Origin: a virus | Taxonomy: Duplodnaviria; Caudoviricetes | Virus record (IMG/VR): IMGVR_UViG_3300020149_000046 | Location: 1-38,538 of that record | Reading direction: 5' to 3' (one strand) | Length of the DNA: 38,538 nucleotides | In this document: piece after piece, positions 15,465 to 29,974 of the stretch | Numbering within the stretch: position 1 is the first letter of the stretch | Layout: each line of letters begins with the position of its first letter | The notes under the pieces: generated by a model | Seen by the model: the letters and a program-made list of their open reading frames with translations, nothing else | Database searches by the model: none | What the model was told of the DNA's origin: nothing | Translations under genes and position numbers: made by a program

Positions 15465-15917
15465 CTAAATCGCCGGGTTAGCGACGCCGGCGAGATAGGC
15501 CTGCACGGCCGCCTCGTCGAAGACGCACCACACGCCCTGGTCATCGACATCTTCGACGAAGCCACCGATCGAGCGGGTATTGGTGCCGCTGGTTTTCGCC
15601 ACCGTCTCGTCATCGACGACGTAAAAGATCTTGCCGATATCGGCGATCGTGATGGCGTCGGTAGAGGTCGAATTTTTGAAGCGAAACCGGCCGGCGCGCC
15701 ACTCGATCACCTCGTCGCCGGCATTGGCGCCGCCGGTCCTGGCCTCCATGGCGACGCCAGCGCCAACCAGGTCGGTCGCCGTAGCGCCCTTGGTCAGGTA
15801 GCCCGCGGCGTTGCGCATCAGGATGGCGCCACCGAAGACGACGACGCTGGCCGCCAGGCCATCGACGCGGTTATCGCCTTCCCGGCGCGGGGTGTTGCGG
15901 TCGGCAGTCAGTGCCAT
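15465..15917 (-). CDS. Head decoration/cement-like protein
   Basis: 'MALTADRNT', 'ADIGKIFYVVDDETVAKT'; between protease and capsid genes. Confidence 0.65.
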   Translation of the reverse strand: MALTADRNTPRREGDNRVDGLAASVVVFGGAILMRNAAGYLTKGATATDLVGAGVAMEARTGGANAGDEVIEWRAGRFRFKNSTSTDAITIADIGKIFYVVDDETVAKTSGTNTRSIGGFVEDVDDQGVWCVFDEAAVQAYLAGVANPAI

Positions 15918-16576: not shown

Positions 16577-17083
16577 GTCGGTTTGCTCCTGGTGCAGGGT
16601 CACCAGACCCTTGAGATTGGGTTTATTCACGAGGCTGGCGCGCAGCACCGCATCGATATTGCCGGCCTTGTCGTGCAGAATGACGGGGCTGATGCCGCGA
16701 TAGGCGCGGCCGCCGACCAGGCGCCGGCCGCGCGGCGTCCATTCGGCCTTACCCCAGATGCCGTCGGCGCGATTTTCCAGCGCCACGATCCAGCCCATGG
16801 CCGGCGCGGGCAGGCCCTTGGGCGCCGCCAGGTCGGTCGAGTGGTTTTCGTCGATCACCAGGCGCTCGCCGGCCTGCAAGAATTTTTCCAGCAGCGCCTG
16901 CACATTGCGGATGCGATAAGGCCCACGGCCGTCGCCGCTGCGGATTTCGCCGGCGGGCAGCAGGTGAATATATTCAGGAGGTTCGGCGCCGCTCAGCCCG
17001 ATCGCCGCGCATAGCGCAACCGTACCGGCCGGGGCGGCCTCGGCCATGAGGGAGACGGTGAGGTGATTGACGCTGCTGTTCAT
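15974..17083 (-). CDS. Mu gpI-like head maturation protease with C-terminal scaffold
   Basis: 'IHLLPAG...DGRGPY', 'VIDENH', 'APAMGWI', 'WGKAEWT', 'YRGISPV', 'LVNKPNL'. Confidence 0.93.
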   Translation of the reverse strand: MNSSVNHLTVSLMAEAAPAGTVALCAAIGLSGAEPPEYIHLLPAGEIRSGDGRGPYRIRNVQALLEKFLQAGERLVIDENHSTDLAAPKGLPAPAMGWIVALENRADGIWGKAEWTPRGRRLVGGRAYRGISPVILHDKAGNIDAVLRASLVNKPNLKGLVTLHQEQTDMDLLAKLIAALKLPTDTSEDALVTAITTLHSQQADHRIALQAQVDPLAEAAGLAKGAKVEEVVAAIKQLVASDADAATIVSLQGELKTLGTELNALRDEGRRKAATSFVDAAIAAKRVGVSAQRERFIAMHMADPAGAEAIINDLPALGRSAALPTPPGKSGDGKRVLTLEQEAVVSAMQLNRDAYIAQLDAQEQREAAL

Positions 17084-17085
17084 GG

Positions 17086-17136
17086 CCGGCACATTGCCGT
17101 GGCGCCTCGGTGCTTCGCGCCCCGGAAGCGTTTCCG
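17086..17136 (-). promoter_or_regulatory. Putative activator-dependent late promoter (head operon)
   Basis: Minus strand CGGAAACGCTTCCGGGGCGCGAA-N14-CGGCAATGTGCCGG; near-identical copy at 25377-25427. Confidence 0.7.
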
Positions 17137-17142
17137 GTCAGT

Positions 17143-17583
17143 TCAACACCAGTTCCGGCGCTTGCCCTCCCAGGGCCGCGCCAGTTCTTCGGCGATCAGC
17201 ACCTCGCCCAAGTCAACACCGCCAACCCGCACATAGGCCAGCGTCCGTCCATTTCGATCAAAACCCGTCCGCCCCAGATAGAGCCGCCCGCCGCTCAGCA
17301 GTTCGGCCAGGCGCTGGGCAGCCACATGGCCCAGGCGCAATTCGGCGTCGCATTTGGCCGACTGGATTTCCGGCGTGTCGATATTGACGATGCGCACCTT
17401 CTCGCCACGCACCCAGAATGTGTCGCCATCGACCACGCAGGTGACCCGCTTGCCGCTGCCGCACTGCTCATAATCGAATGCAGCGGCGGCAATAGCCAGC
17501 ACAGCCCAGATGGCCATCGAGGCGAGGACAATGCGCGGCACGACAATCAAGGGGCGACGGGCGATCTTTCGAAGCTCCTTCAA
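17143..17583 (-). CDS. Thermonuclease (SNase-like) with N-terminal signal/TM segment; start uncertain
   Basis: 'VVDGDTF', 'VRIVNIDTPE', 'DRNGRTLAYV', 'LIAEELARPW'. Confidence 0.9.
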   Translation of the reverse strand: MKELRKIARRPLIVVPRIVLASMAIWAVLAIAAAAFDYEQCGSGKRVTCVVDGDTFWVRGEKVRIVNIDTPEIQSAKCDAELRLGHVAAQRLAELLSGGRLYLGRTGFDRNGRTLAYVRVGGVDLGEVLIAEELARPWEGKRRNWC

Positions 17584-17692
17584 AGGCTTTCAAATGGCCG
17601 GTGGCGCGTTTTTGGAGCCGCCGTGCGCCTTTGTCCAGCCCGGAAGGTTACGCGCACCAGCGGCCAGCCCGTCGCGCGATTGGGCATCGCGG

Positions 17693-17721
17693 TTGCAATT
17701 GAGCCCTAAAACTACGATATT
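17693..17721 (+). promoter_or_regulatory. Putative sigma70-type promoter, antisense to the late operon
   Basis: TTGCAA(17693-98)-N17-GATATT(17716-21); predicted +1 near G17728. Confidence 0.5.
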
Positions 17722-17727
17722 GCAGTT

Positions 17728-17794
17728 GCGCTCGAGCCAGAACAGCCGGCCCTAGTTGGCCGTGAGGGATCAAGGTTCGGCCCTCCGGGCGTCA
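17728..17794 (+). ncRNA. tRNA-shaped small RNA (D-armless) converging on MuF stop
   Basis: 7-bp stem GCGCTCG/CGGGCGT; arm CGGCC-CTAGTT-GGCCG; arm GAGGG-N12-CCCTC adjacent to the closing stem. Confidence 0.55.
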
Positions 17795-18904
17795 TTCCCA
17801 TCCCTGTCCCTGTCGCACCACCCGGCCGCTGCCGATCCGCCGTTTGGCCTGGCCGCGGTTGATGCGGTGCAGGCCCAAGAGCCGGAGGCTGCCATCCGCT
17901 TCCCGTTTGATATAGGCGGCCCAGAACTTCCCTTCGACCAGGCCGATCAGCCGGAAGTGATACGACCGAACCGGGTCCATGACCACGGTGGCATAGTCCA
18001 GCAGCGCCTGCGTCACGCTGCGATAGGCCCGCGCGGTCGCCTCTCGATGCTTGAAATGCCGGCGTACCGTATCGGCGGAGAGGACGATCGCTTCACCCGG
18101 CCGCGCACCCAAGGCGGCGGCCAGCGCGCGCGGCGGTTGCGCCACCGGCACGGAATAGCCACCGGCCAGCCGCATGGCGTCCCGCACCAGCAGGTCCACC
18201 TGCTCCGCCGCCGTGTCCGGCGGCCGCGTCTGGGCCGCCGGCAGCGGCTCTCCCCCGCGCAGCGTGTCCCAGGCCATGCCGACATTGCCCTCAAAGCCAT
18301 CGTCGGGCGGGATGGCCAGGCGCGGGTCATCATCGGCCGTCACCGTCCAGCCATAGCGCACCAGGTCGCGCTCAGAGACAATCATGACGTGGCAGCGGCA
18401 ATTGAAGCCGTTGGGCGGGAAATGCGTGCGCCAGAACCAATGGTCGATCGGCAGGATGACATCATGCCATTTCCGATGCGTGTCGCGCACGCGATGGTCG
18501 CCGGCTGTGACATAGCGGAAATAGTAACGCAGGCGCGGATTGGCCGCTTGCAGGCGCCTGGCCTGTTCCCACCGTCCTGCCGCCCGTGCCCCGAAGGTTT
18601 CCATCCGCCAGATCAGGTTCGAGTGCCAGCCAGGATCGCTGGGCGTGGCCCAGCCATAGCGGTCGGCTATGGCCTGGTAGCGTGCCTTGAAATCGTCCGG
18701 CGTGCCACCCTCCGCATAGATCTCGCCGGCCGCCGCCAAGAGGTCCTTGTGCATGGCCTCGGCTTGCGCATCCACCACCGTTTCCGCGCGGGCGCCGGCG
18801 GCGCGCAGCAAGGCGCGCCAATCACTATCGGCAATGGCCAGGCGATCCTTGAGATAGGCGATGGCCTCGACAAAGGGGACAGCGCCCCGCTCAACCGCCG
18901 GCAT
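17792..18904 (-). CDS. MuF (gp30) minor head protein with C-terminal putative BECR-fold RNase domain
   Basis: 'RYVTAGDHRVRDTH..WHDVILPIDH.FW..HFPPNGFNCRC' MuF core plus ~115 aa extension. Confidence 0.85.
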   Translation of the reverse strand: MPAVERGAVPFVEAIAYLKDRLAIADSDWRALLRAAGARAETVVDAQAEAMHKDLLAAAGEIYAEGGTPDDFKARYQAIADRYGWATPSDPGWHSNLIWRMETFGARAAGRWEQARRLQAANPRLRYYFRYVTAGDHRVRDTHRKWHDVILPIDHWFWRTHFPPNGFNCRCHVMIVSERDLVRYGWTVTADDDPRLAIPPDDGFEGNVGMAWDTLRGGEPLPAAQTRPPDTAAEQVDLLVRDAMRLAGGYSVPVAQPPRALAAALGARPGEAIVLSADTVRRHFKHREATARAYRSVTQALLDYATVVMDPVRSYHFRLIGLVEGKFWAAYIKREADGSLRLLGLHRINRGQAKRRIGSGRVVRQGQGWE

Positions 18905-20438
18905 CGACACGGCCAGCCAGTTCGGCCAGCACCAGGGCGCGGGTCATCAGCGCTTTCAGCTCGGCCAGCGGCAGGCCGGGCCAGCGCGCCCGCAAAGCGG
19001 CCTCACGCTCGGCCGGTGTGGCATGCTGCTCGACGATATCGGCAATAGCGTCGAGCAGGGCCGCCTCAGCCGCAGCCGATACCGTGGCGGCGTCCAGGGC
19101 CAGGCCATCCATATCCGGCACATCCATCTGCGCATGCCGTGACTCGTCCCTTGCCGGCAGCAGTGGCGGCGGCGGTGCGATGACTGACGCAGGCGCCAGA
19201 ACCTCTTCGCCATCCTGCGGCTCGGGCAGGCCGACCAGGTCGCGCATCGAGGATGCCGAAACCCGCAGCCCCATCGGCACCAGGCGCGACACGGCCGAGA
19301 CCGTCTGCTCCACGTCCTTCTGGTCCGGCCGGCCGATCTTGAGGCGCGGGCACGGCCAGTTCGGGCCGCGCTCCAGCATGATCCAGGTGCGGATCAGGTC
19401 GCGGTTGAGAATGGCGCTGATCGCCTTGGCGTCGGCCTTCTCGATATCCTCTTGCACCTGGCGGTGCTCCTGGCCCACCGCATGACCGCCGGCAATGGCG
19501 TCGGTCGTGGCCGTCTGGCCCAGAACGGCCTTGGACACCTGCTGATCGAGCCAGTCCGCGCGCTCCTTATACATGCCGGTCGAAGAGCCGATCGAGCCGG
19601 TCTGCTCGAAGTCGATCTGCATGGATTCGGGGATGATGGCGGCGCAGTCGCCGGCAATATTGGCGACGGCGCGGAACAGCGTGTCCTTCTCGGCCTGGCT
19701 GGCGCCGGGCCCATATTTGCCCACCCGCAGCGGCTGGCCATAGGTCTGGATGAAAATGGCCCAGTCCCGGTTGGCATAGGCCTTGAACATCCAGGCCCAG
19801 GCCACGATGCGGGCCAGCCCGCTGCGCAGCGGCAGGCCCGATTTGGCTTTCATCACCGCCGCGATGAACTTGCCGGGCGGCAGCTCGACCAGACCGCCAT
19901 TTTCGTCGAGCATCATCGGCGTGGTCAGGTTGTCCCGCGCCGGCTTGAACCAACGCGGGTCGCGCCATTCCAGACGCTCGGGCCGCCACTGGCCCGAGGA
20001 CGTGTCCCAGATGATTTCCGTATAGCTCACGCCCTTGCCGATGGCGTCGAGGATGTCGAACATTTCATCTTGCAACTCGTCGCGCATCAGCCAGTCGCGT
20101 ACCATGTCGGCCGTCTCGACGTCGCCGGCGGCGTCGCTGGCCGCCTCTACCGTGATGTCGAGCTGGCTCACCGAACGCTTGCGCGTGCCCAGCACGCCGG
20201 CATAGTGCAGGTCGCGCTCCTCGATCGTCTCGGCCAGTTCCAGATAGCGCAACGGCTCGCCCTGGTCGGCCTCCCGCAGGATCGAGGCCAGGCGCAGCGG
20301 GTTGAGCCCGTCGCCCGGATAGCCTGAAAGCGGGGTGCGCACGCCCGAAATGGTCGGCCCGGCGACTTCGGAGATCAGAACCTTCTTCTCGATCGGCCGG
20401 CCGCGATGATCGACCAGGCCCTTATAGGTTTCAGCCAT
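18891..20438 (-). CDS. Portal protein (Mu gp29, DUF935)
   Basis: 'EERDLHYAGVLGTRK', 'DWAIFIQTYGQPLRVGKY', 'SKAVLGQTATT'. Confidence 0.95.
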   Translation of the reverse strand: MAETYKGLVDHRGRPIEKKVLISEVAGPTISGVRTPLSGYPGDGLNPLRLASILREADQGEPLRYLELAETIEERDLHYAGVLGTRKRSVSQLDITVEAASDAAGDVETADMVRDWLMRDELQDEMFDILDAIGKGVSYTEIIWDTSSGQWRPERLEWRDPRWFKPARDNLTTPMMLDENGGLVELPPGKFIAAVMKAKSGLPLRSGLARIVAWAWMFKAYANRDWAIFIQTYGQPLRVGKYGPGASQAEKDTLFRAVANIAGDCAAIIPESMQIDFEQTGSIGSSTGMYKERADWLDQQVSKAVLGQTATTDAIAGGHAVGQEHRQVQEDIEKADAKAISAILNRDLIRTWIMLERGPNWPCPRLKIGRPDQKDVEQTVSAVSRLVPMGLRVSASSMRDLVGLPEPQDGEEVLAPASVIAPPPPLLPARDESRHAQMDVPDMDGLALDAATVSAAAEAALLDAIADIVEQHATPAEREAALRARWPGLPLAELKALMTRALVLAELAGRVDAGG

Positions 20439-27864: not shown

Positions 27865-28184
27865 GGTCCGGCTCCGCCAGCCATGAAGTCGGTCCAGAAG
27901 CGCAACTGCGCGGCCACCATGGCGGGCAGTCGGCCATCGGCTTCCCGCCGCGCCAGCAGCGCGGCCAGCCGCACATGCAGATAATTCGCACCAGCAGAAA
28001 AGCCGGCCTGCTCACAGGCGCGAACCAGCAGCCCGCCATGGGTCACCACCAGGCCGTCCGGCAGCCGCACCAACATGGCAGCACGGTCCCGGTTGTTTTC
28101 CGCATTGAGGATATGCGCTGCCGGCGGAAACATGTGTTCCTGGCCCTGCCTGACGCCGCGGATCGTCGGCAATGGATGGTTCAT
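27861..28184 (-). CDS. Hypothetical protein (107 aa)
   Basis: ATGA coupling on both sides. Confidence 0.65.
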   Translation of the reverse strand: MNHPLPTIRGVRQGQEHMFPPAAHILNAENNRDRAAMLVRLPDGLVVTHGGLLVRACEQAGFSAGANYLHVRLAALLARREADGRLPAMVAAQLRFWTDFMAGGAGP

Positions 28185-29974
28185 GCCGGACCTCCCGCCT
28201 GCCGGCGGAAGCGCAGCCCCATCCGCCGTGCTTCCGCCGCGACGGACGGATATGGCCGGCCGATCCGCGCGGCGACATCGACCAGCGCCAGGTCCTTTTC
28301 CGCCGCATCGGTCAAGAGCTGCCGCTCCTGCGGGGTCCAGGCGCGCCGCTGGCGGAAACCGAGCAAGCTGGCCTTGGTGGCGACGGCCGGGCGGGGACGC
28401 CCCAGTTCGGCAGCGATCTGCGCCACCGGCACATGCTGCTTGTAGCGCTCCTCGAGGATGGCGATCTCGGCCGGCGTCCAGGACTCGGCGGCCCTGTTGA
28501 CCCCATTTTTCTGCGCGAACTTGTAGATCGCCGTAATCCCGCGCTCGAAGCCTGCCGCTTTCAGGTCCTGCAGAATGGCCGCATAGGTCTTGCCCGCCTC
28601 GAGTCCGGCCAGGGCAATGGCCTTTTCCGGGTCTGACCAGTATTTTACCCGATCGCGCGTGAGCCCCAGGGCAATGGCCCGCATCTGGATGGCAACGCGG
28701 CCGCGCTGATAGCCGGCATCGGCCAGCAATTGCACGATATCGAATATCCGCACCTCGCGTTTATAGGCATCGGCGACGATCTGGTCTTCGTCATCGCTCC
28801 ATTGCTGGGCGGCGCGCGCGCTGGCAAAACCCAGGCTCTGCGCCCGCGAGGAAATATTGCCCAGCGAACGATGCCGATAGCCGGCCCTGGCCAGGTCCTC
28901 GGCAATCTGGCGTACGGTGCGTCCGCGCTGATAGCCCGCCGCGATGATCCGGTCTTCTTCGGCCAGGAAGCCGCGCCGGCCTGCATTTGGTACGGGCGCA
29001 GGCACCGCATCGGGCAGAGCGGAGAGGAGTCCGGCCACGCCCGCCGCACCCAGATCGGCGGGCGGCACGATGTCCGGCGCCCGGCCGCGATGCGCGCTTC
29101 TGACCGGGCCGCCGCGGAAACGCACGCGCCGCGGGCCGGCGATCGCTGGCCCGATGGCCAGGAATTCGCCATCCGCCAGCGTGCGCAGCGCCGCCGCGCG
29201 GGCGGCCGTAAACCCCAGAAGGCCGCCAGCGCGCTCCAGATCGCGGTCGAACATCGTCCGGCCGACAATGACATTGGTGGCCTTGGCGATGAGCGACTTG
29301 CTGGTTTCCGCGATGCGCTGGGTGGCGATGACCGCGCACAAGCCCCGTTTGCGCCCCCTGCCCATCAGTTCGGCCAGGGCAACGATGGCCCCTTTGCGCG
29401 CCGCCGGGGTGGCATCGCCATTGTCGTAATACGGCGCCAGGGCCTGGACTTCATCGATCAGCACCAGCATGGGCTGCCAATGAGCCGCCGGCACCTCGAC
29501 AAGGGCAGTTGCCAGGCGCGCCACCAGCCCCAATCGTGCATCGGCCGATGCGTCGGAAAGGTCGAGGACCGCCGAATAGCGGTGCTGGCGGATATGCTGC
29601 GCCAGCGCCTCGGGGCCCACCCGTTCGGCCTCCGCCGCACTGATGATTGCAAGATCGCAAACCTCGGCCAGGGTGACGAATTCGCCCTCGCCATCGATGA
29701 GCAATTGCTGGATATGACCGAAGGCCTGCTCGAACAGCCGCCGCAGCAACATGGACTTGCCGGCGCCGGAATTGCCCTGGATCAGCAGGCGGCCGGCAAT
29801 GAGCCGGGGCAGGTCCAGCACCAGCGGCTGGCCATTGTCGATCTGCATGCCCAGGGTGAGGGCGCCGGGTGCCGGCGCCTCTTCGCTGTAATCCGCACTC
29901 TGCGCCTGCCGCTCGGCGATCGTGGCGGGATGGCGGGCGATAAGATCGTTCAATTGCTGTCGATTGAGAGCCAT
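28181..29974 (-). CDS. HerA/FtsK-superfamily ATPase fused to five Myb/GcrA-like HTH repeats
   Basis: Walker A 'GNSGAGKS', 'LIDGEGEF', Walker B 'LVLIDEVQ', 'GRGRKRG', 'IATQR'; C-terminal W(S/T)xxE repeats. Confidence 0.85.
   Translation of the reverse strand: MALNRQQLNDLIARHPATIAERQAQSADYSEEAPAPGALTLGMQIDNGQPLVLDLPRLIAGRLLIQGNSGAGKSMLLRRLFEQAFGHIQQLLIDGEGEFVTLAEVCDLAIISAAEAERVGPEALAQHIRQHRYSAVLDLSDASADARLGLVARLATALVEVPAAHWQPMLVLIDEVQALAPYYDNGDATPAARKGAIVALAELMGRGRKRGLCAVIATQRIAETSKSLIAKATNVIVGRTMFDRDLERAGGLLGFTAARAAALRTLADGEFLAIGPAIAGPRRVRFRGGPVRSAHRGRAPDIVPPADLGAAGVAGLLSALPDAVPAPVPNAGRRGFLAEEDRIIAAGYQRGRTVRQIAEDLARAGYRHRSLGNISSRAQSLGFASARAAQQWSDDEDQIVADAYKREVRIFDIVQLLADAGYQRGRVAIQMRAIALGLTRDRVKYWSDPEKAIALAGLEAGKTYAAILQDLKAAGFERGITAIYKFAQKNGVNRAAESWTPAEIAILEERYKQHVPVAQIAAELGRPRPAVATKASLLGFRQRRAWTPQERQLLTDAAEKDLALVDVAARIGRPYPSVAAEARRMGLRFRRQAGGPA

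Follow-up and report, generated by a model that had tools for sequence, protein, structure and literature searches.

Type III toxin-antitoxin systems such as ToxIN/AbiQ, CptIN and TenpIN consist of an RNase toxin and a small pseudoknotted RNA, lack an antitoxin protein, and are found both in mobile elements and as stand-alone cassettes. Their antitoxin RNAs are tandem repeats that lie upstream of the toxin gene and are co-transcribed with it. RNAs that mimic tRNA are known from other settings, including the bacterial Y RNA YrlA and viral tRNA-like structures. In phages, toxins carried by MuF head proteins normally have a downstream immunity ORF, with 89.4% of MuF toxin genes having a small downstream ORF that is the presumed immunity gene; proteobacterial MuF tails (Ct_MAD and others) are left unexplained in the part of that report available to us (PMC5576092, Jamet et al. 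2017). For MuF-PBECR proteins it has been proposed that they are packaged and injected and that their targets are mRNA or CRISPR RNA, with tRNA perhaps spared; the accessible portion of the PBECR description mentions no partner RNA or immunity factor (PMC5512222). The targets of the characterised colicin-like BECR enzymes are mostly tRNA, according to the accessible text of a preprint (bioRxiv 10.64898/2026.08.28.747851).

The DNA analysed here, which we call the window, is the 38,538-nucleotide viral record IMGVR_UViG_3300020149_000046. It is a Mu-like transposable prophage that carries its transposase, MuB, portal, protease and major head genes on the minus strand. Behind the stop codon of its MuF gene, on the opposite strand, lies a predicted tRNA-shaped RNA with a promoter of its own.

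The MuF gene and the predicted RNA behind its stop codon

The features under study are as follows, in coordinates of the window.

17792..18910, minus strand: gene for MuF (Mu gpF-like minor head protein), 372 aa; PF04233, E 1e-15; phrog_220; between the portal and protease genes
17795..18163, minus strand: C-terminal PBECR-like domain of MuF, residues about 250-372; His288 retained, Gly346 in the family Ser/Thr column
17693..17721, plus strand: predicted sigma-70-type promoter facing the MuF gene; -35 TTGCAA (17693-17698), 17-nt spacer, -10 GATATT (17716-17721)
17728..17792, plus strand: core of the predicted tRNA-shaped RNA, short three-way form; best match of models made without the window; covariation in alignments A7 and A11
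17728..17734, plus strand: closing (acceptor-like) stem P1, paired with 17786-17792; two G.U pairs; two-sided changes at 6/8 pairs in A7 and 7/8 in A11
17737..17743, plus strand: D-loop-like segment with complementarity to 17775-17780, part of the P3 loop; predicted elbow between the two loops
17747..17762, plus strand: P2 hairpin, 5 bp with a 6-nt loop; length and sequence variable across the family
17764..17785, plus strand: P3 hairpin (T-arm-like), 5 bp with a 12-nt loop; directly against the 3' strand of P1
17884..17903, plus strand: weak terminator-like hairpin in the MuF coding end; 1 found against 0.8 expected in shuffles

The MuF gene is followed by a 209-nt gap, a staphylococcal-nuclease homologue and then the protease gene. 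One DNA sequencing run, possibly the source, is identical to the window over 17300-18300; no RNA run was listed as containing this stretch, which bears neither way on expression. The preliminary description had claimed that no immunity ORF is present, and this was borne out: no small immunity ORF is evident downstream of MuF, where the gap before the nuclease homologue is overlapped by program-made frames of 35-41 codons only. The elements homologous to that of the window differ by indels that break any reading frame. PADLOC returned nothing relevant. Judged by its sequence, the MuF protein is built like a polymorphic toxin, with a MuF domain and a C-terminal enzyme-like domain encoded in the head module of a temperate phage. 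The staphylococcal-nuclease homologue itself (17143-17583, minus strand) has a hydrophobic N-terminus and occupies the variable slot between MuF and protease, which is the position of Mu gene G; a gene resembling it is found near the solo module in L129. In the early region, 28181-29974 (minus strand) encodes an ATPase of 597 aa with an FtsK/HerA-like N-terminus and C-terminal helix-turn-helix repeats.

A BECR-fold C-terminal domain had been proposed for this MuF protein, and structural models and profiles (Atlas, profile and AlphaFold matches) agree on a PBECR/colicin-D-like fold. Residues about 250-372 have no direct Pfam match, and a Foldseek search with the model of the domain of homologue P0002 gave no match at E<=0.001. 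The AlphaFold model of the window's domain has a pLDDT of 94, and in it an N-terminal helix is predicted to be followed by 4-5 strands, as in the BECR fold. Its top PDB matches are all BECR RNases at Z about 5-7.7, every one below Z 8, and include BrnT (Z 7.7, rmsd 2.5, 76 aligned), CdiA-CT NC101 (Z 6.9, rmsd 2.9, 78 aligned) and colicin D (Z 5.7, rmsd 3.0, 82 aligned). Likewise, structure comparison in the Atlas places PBECR2/3 clusters at TM 0.74-0.80 to the MuF domain. A profile of the window's domain and its three close homologues, the only ones found (P0002-P0004, as proteins without DNA), matches the Pfam-PBECR3 members L040, L065 and L083 at E 2e-7 to 8e-6 in a search of a small set, and a widened profile collects 1,217 clusters at 50% identity from this branch alone. 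No relatives with DNA close to that of the window were found in phage records, viral contigs or GTDB, and a metagenome scan returned only the window's own contig.

The predicted site residues of the domain are partly retained. H288 corresponds to the family's helix His, which is His in 150/154 aligned rows. At the last-strand column, which is Ser/Thr in 150/154 relatives, the three closest homologues included, the window has G346. This substitution makes RNase activity of the window's copy less likely and leaves the fold assignment unaffected. By its sequence, then, the window's own domain may be an attenuated, weak or dead enzyme.

The promoter motif TTGCAA-N17-GATATT, the closing stem with G.U pairs and the two hairpins are all present where the preliminary description had placed them. 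Its T-like arm (17764-17785) lies directly against P1, and the 3' end of the RNA overlaps the MuF stop codon (17792-17794, minus strand). What did not hold is the anticodon-like arm: the middle hairpin is hypervariable with a loop of 6 nt, and the reading of P2 as an anticodon mimic was rejected. The candidate promoter ranks 6 of 76,984 window positions in a weight-matrix scan, and promoter-like motifs are found at the matching place and strand in relatives; a stricter consensus scan gave 0 sites within 17000-18500. The primary transcript may end at the hairpin 17884..17903(+), which is possibly a chance structure.

The minimum free energy structure of 17728-17794 is the three-way fold, with pair probabilities of 0.59-0.89. 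Folded alone, this segment is no better than shuffles (z = 0.04, 101/200 shuffles as stable), and adding 6 nt per side alters its minimum free energy structure. Rfam and ARAGORN were silent at the window's element, which they did not recognise as a tRNA cloverleaf with a 7-nt anticodon loop and canonical D and T loops, and which encodes no CCA. Because single-sequence folding, Rfam, ARAGORN and the strict promoter scan all gave no signal, the evidence that the element is more than chance is comparative.

Conservation of the fold and its association with the nuclease domain

We used covariance models from which the window had been left out. R1, made from 12 relatives, ranks 17727-17793(+) first in the prophage with 23.7 bits, against 23.3 bits for a chance match at 15686-15737; among 15 loci it recovered three held-out ones at the expected position (E<1e-3). 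R1 was too weak to separate the window element from 15686-15737. R3 was constructed after the R1 result from 14 relatives picked for likeness. The best match of R3 in the prophage is again 17727-17793(+), at 32.3 bits and E 5.7e-6, with the next match at 18.8 bits; it gave no match in 16 control loci and misses the Shinella-type variant (L056, L058, L062, L085, L086, L088 and L106). The segment 15686-15737 (minus strand), the runner-up of both short-form models with 23.3 and 18.8 bits, lies inside a coding gene and is taken as chance in GC-rich DNA. The junction sequence is near-identical between the window and L097, L119 and L124, and in a quick tree of the domain the window groups weakly with L102 and L103 (SH-aLRT 87), whose RNA type is identical. 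The long-form model R2 did not find the element in the window. Only position, architecture and protein kinship therefore connect the short form with the long one.

The preliminary description had called for an alignment downstream of related MuF genes and a test for covariation; this was run, and the fold covaries in A7, A8, A9 and A11. In A7, the short-form alignment of 13 sequences including the window, 97% of cells are paired and 8/13 pairs show two-sided changes (0/500 shuffles; slid controls 46-54%), and RNAalifold returns the stems expected from the three-way fold. P3 is paired in 98% of cells in A7, with two-sided change at 2/5 pairs there and at 3/5 in A11. The pairing of P1 is inflated in A7 and A11 because the sequence ends were cut at that stem, which is not so for A8 and A9. 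In A8, a long-form alignment whose 12 sequences were for the most part trimmed at set distances from a sequence motif, RNAalifold gives a closing stem, a D-like arm and a stacked hairpin, with 13/22 pairs compensatory. Paired cells amount to 94% in A8 and 87% in A9 (0/500 shuffles), with slid controls at 33-54% over A7, A8 and A9.

Three alignments show covariation in the closing stem and the stacked hairpin, and two show it in the loop-loop pseudoknot. The D-like loop forms a 5-bp helix with the T-like loop: it is 96.7% paired in A8, with two-sided change at 2/5 pairs, and 98% paired in A9, a separate Pasteurellaceae-type set, with two-sided change at 4/5 pairs. The short-form loop-loop signal is weaker: cognate against swapped loops gave p 0.02 (16 sequences) and 0.005 (12), and the pairing is absent in the short forms L100, L119, L095 and L098. 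The loop-loop duplex of the window has an energy of -4.9 kcal/mol, and 2/15 foreign loops are as good. Across the family, the element is 60-110 nt long and its stem lengths vary. Of the tRNA shape originally claimed, the closing stem, stacked hairpin and loop-loop elbow are therefore conserved, whereas the anticodon arm is variable; with the middle hairpin free to vary, what is conserved is the shape of an acceptor arm and elbow, without an anticodon. A canonical-looking tRNA T-arm is seen by eye in L033, L049 and L061, which belong to a deeper branch, and at the place of the L061 T-arm there is a sub-threshold tRNA-clan match (22.3 bits, E 4.9). We infer that the family element descended from tRNA.

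To compare the element with its neighbouring gene, we assembled 80 MuF loci from GTDB, 77 with a usable gene (L032, L037 and L043, without motif or stop, were left out), and added L002 and the window's own contig. L068 was left out for too little flank, and L039 as a duplicate in the 94-domain test. Loci were classed by Pfam (E<0.05) and tail length, and promoters were scored with a sigma-70 matrix at a threshold of at least 6. An antisense promoter at this threshold lies 55-150 nt behind the stop in 24/35 Pfam-PBECR MuF loci, compared with 7/35 on the sense strand, and 10/11 unassigned long tails, which are profile-linked to PBECR3, also have one. The corresponding counts in controls are 2/21 for short MuF and 4/11 for MuF with other tails (p 2e-5, kinship ignored). 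The seven MuF N-termini nearest to that of the window belong to short proteins without the element. A loose detector for a stem plus a hairpin also gave signals in many controls; it was discarded as evidence and kept for finding coordinates only.

Searching with the domain profile gave matches in 28/401 genomes of one alphaproteobacterial order and in 13/401 of the class. Twelve of the loci found in this way are short frames without a MuF motif, most of them stand-alone genes of 133-159 codons amid host or island genes; L132 and L134 may be gene remnants, and no plasmid match was found for a solo gene. An RNA-model match lies beside the gene in 12/12 of these short non-MuF loci (8 were seeds and 4 held out), and at most of these loci, by eye, the RNA is followed by a terminator-like hairpin. 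Since the stand-alone genes carry the RNA too, the RNA tracks the nuclease domain and not the virion. The module of a MuF RNase and an RNA, as first proposed, stands in that a covarying, separately promoted RNA candidate tracks the domain, but the partner is the domain itself and is not virion-specific.

The association can also be followed through domain decay. Across 94 domains, an RNA was called on a model match or a promoter of at least 6, the promoter alone being weak there (15/32 controls in the wide window); L132, L133 and L135, which are partial frames, were left out of the site-residue and RNA-call comparisons. An RNA call was obtained for 75/82 domains with intact predicted site residues, compared with 5/12 degenerate ones (p 2e-4, kinship ignored). 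The cultured phages SuMu and vB_MhM_3927AP2 have both promoter and element. In Mu gp30 and JBD25, the domain is degenerate and lacks the site residues, the next gene begins directly at the stop, and there is no element. In all, the element is lost with domain decay in Mu, JBD25, L015, L017, L018, L075 and L115. Seven intact-looking domains have no RNA call, and four of these show the element by eye. L094, with an intact domain, retains the element behind a 450-nt insertion; L123, also intact, has a transposase at the gene end and no RNA call; and L105 is the remaining exception. Arg replaces His in 14/73 domains, where the RNA is mostly retained, and neighbours on the domain tree tend to share an RNA type (18 changes of type, compared with 44 when shuffled). 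These sequence comparisons show that, across phyla, the predicted element faces genes of the PBECR-like kind head-on and comes and goes with the domain.

Two tandem RNA copies (L055, 3240-3351 and 3357-3458, minus strand) lie behind one MuF-PBECR3 gene in Spirabiliibacterium pneumoniae. In L124 (G614:C1, about 2804700-2805200), a window-type RNA overlaps the 3' end of a stand-alone nuclease-domain gene, and the module is flanked by genes whose motifs resemble those of type I-U/I-G cas genes. The RNA overlaps the last codons in L033, L034 and L082, where C-terminal residues are encoded by the antisense RNA, in L033 by its T-arm-like hairpin. Genome G595 has two related copies (L123, L133 and L135), both hit by insertions: L123 has the transposase at its gene end, and L133/L135 is a split gene with intact RNA and promoter. 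Finally, in the PBECR2-type MuF loci L013, L014, L022, L023, L027, L028, L041, L045, L051, L060 and L071, a promoter-like motif on the antisense strand and a structured segment of 60-120 nt likewise lie beyond the stop. These segments are of other sequence types, outside R1-R3, and are likely to be further RNA families.

Proposed function of the RNA

The reading that we favour, with a probability of roughly 0.6, is that the element specifies a constitutive RNA that mimics the tRNA elbow and would bind and block the MuF nuclease domain in the manner of a type III antitoxin. Host RNA polymerase would transcribe the 65-nt RNA constitutively from its own antisense promoter, both in the lysogen and, without delay, from phage DNA entering a cell. 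The closing stem and stacked hairpin, fixed by loop-loop pairing, would form an L-shaped mimic of the acceptor arm and elbow, and the nuclease domain, a relative of the tRNA-cutting colicin D and CdiA toxins, would take this mimic instead of host tRNA and be held inactive. The producing cell, the lysogen and the successfully infected cell would thus be safe, but the enzyme would poison a cell that takes in the capsid-borne protein and destroys or silences the phage DNA. As a stand-alone gene pair, the same module could serve as an addiction or abortive-infection cassette. More tentatively, the injected protein may represent a new class of phage weapon, a tRNA-cutting enzyme to which the tRNA-derived mimic made from phage DNA is the sole antidote, a dead-man switch that acts against genome-destroying hosts and spares lysogens, in a module that has also spread across bacteria as a stand-alone toxin-antitoxin cassette; we consider this wider scheme possible but doubtful.

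A ribonucleoprotein is an unlikely alternative. The PBECR-like domain would bind, mature or carry the RNA (into the capsid, in MuF fusions), and the mimic would act on another molecule altogether, for instance by decoying tRNA-cutting defences of the host, or would be a guide or cofactor of the nuclease. Retention of the RNA beside domains with altered site residues (G346 in the window; the Arg-type Pasteurellaceae) is consistent with it, as are the tandem copies in L055 and the RNA binding predicted for inactive MuF-C in the accessible part of PMC5512222. However, the RNA disappears along with the decaying domain in Mu, JBD25 and the five other loci listed above and is never found behind MuF without the domain, and the RNA changes with the domain, a pattern more in keeping with a private pair than with a mimic adapted to an enzyme of the host.

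We regard as improbable a cis-antisense regulator of type I-like design, whose convergent transcript would pair or collide with the late mRNA and silence the nuclease and downstream head genes in the lysogen, the fold merely stabilising the RNA. An antisense RNA could not neutralise a capsid-delivered protein, and a covarying loop-loop pseudoknot with fixed coaxial geometry is unneeded for antisense pairing and would hinder it. The layout is indeed convergent, and beyond the stop codon the RNA is fully complementary to the mRNA; the window has no good terminator after P1, such that the transcript may extend about 100 nt into the coding end, and the element overlaps the coding end in L033, L034, L082 and L124. 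At stand-alone loci, by contrast, there is hardly any overlap because a terminator-like hairpin, as judged by eye, lies between the RNA and the gene.

The element could also act on the sense strand, as a 3' mRNA structure that the domain binds or cuts and that tunes the downstream gene. Its inverted repeats fold on both strands (-25.3 kcal/mol for the minus strand of the window), and BECR enzymes such as RegB process phage mRNA, according to the available part of PMC5512222. Read on the antisense strand, the alignments contain 37 G.U cells, 11 of them from one conserved pair, compared with 6 A.C cells, and this excess favours the antisense strand as the functional RNA. The promoter motifs also lie on that strand at a fixed distance from P1, and the downstream genes vary between loci, leaving a sense-strand element highly improbable. 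We give equally little credence to the idea that the window's fold arose by chance in GC-rich DNA or is a dead relic. The z of 0.04, the slim R1 margin, the loose detector firing in control loci and G346 would speak for it; against it stand the R3 match (E 5.7e-6) at the exact place and strand, the near-identical junction in L097, L119 and L124, and the intact promoter and three stems.

Comparison with known systems

No Rfam family was found at the element in 20 loci, and ARAGORN made no call at it in 60 related loci, its one tRNA-Val in L107 lying elsewhere. In the literature that we searched, which included few subscription journals, we found no description of this module, of a tRNA-shaped antitoxin or of an RNA immunity factor for a virion-borne toxin. 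The element is apparently a member of a widespread, so far undescribed RNA family in many bacteria and phages. The family is new to Rfam, and its members apparently grade from near-canonical tRNA into an elbow mimic with kissing loops. If the favoured reading is true, it explains how proteobacterial temperate phages tolerate MuF-PBECR proteins without an immunity gene, a gap left in the accessible parts of PMC5576092 and PMC5512222, and it gives PBECR domains a first partner and a likely substrate class. With a size of about 135 codons and 100 nt, the module is directly testable.

Like tRNA (RF00005), the element has an acceptor-like stem stacked on a T-like hairpin and a contact between the D and T loops, with a canonical-looking T-arm in three relatives. 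Unlike tRNA, it has varying stem lengths, no CCA and no conserved anticodon loop, and its elbow is a Watson-Crick kissing helix. On the protein side, colicin D and CdiA-CT tRNases (PDB 5znm, 1tfk, 5i4q and 6cp9) are, together with BrnT, the best structural matches of the window's domain (Z 4.9-7.7), and their substrates are tRNA. These toxins are neutralised by immunity proteins, in contrast to what is proposed for the window's domain, and at 10-13% identity and Z below 8 the likeness is one of shared fold only. The predicted fold, the helix His (or Arg) and the occurrence as MuF fusions and solo genes are those of the PBECR domains (PF18810, PF18812 and PF18819), as far as the accessible part of their description goes (PMC5512222, Iyer et al. 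2017); the last-strand Ser/Thr of that family is Gly in the window's domain, which lies below Pfam detection.

As in type III systems, the predicted RNase has as its candidate partner a small pseudoknotted RNA in place of an antitoxin protein, in mobile elements as well as stand-alone. Here, however, the RNA gene is convergent, lies downstream with its own promoter, is normally single-copy (two in L055) and is cloverleaf-like, and the protein has a PBECR-like fold and is often fused to a capsid protein. No Pfam, PADLOC or Rfam match to the known type III toxin or RNA families was found in the present loci. Like the MuF polymorphic toxins, as presented in the available part of PMC5576092, the locus belongs to a temperate phage and encodes a MuF head protein whose C-terminal enzyme domain is of variable type; where those toxins have an immunity ORF, it has a predicted RNA element.
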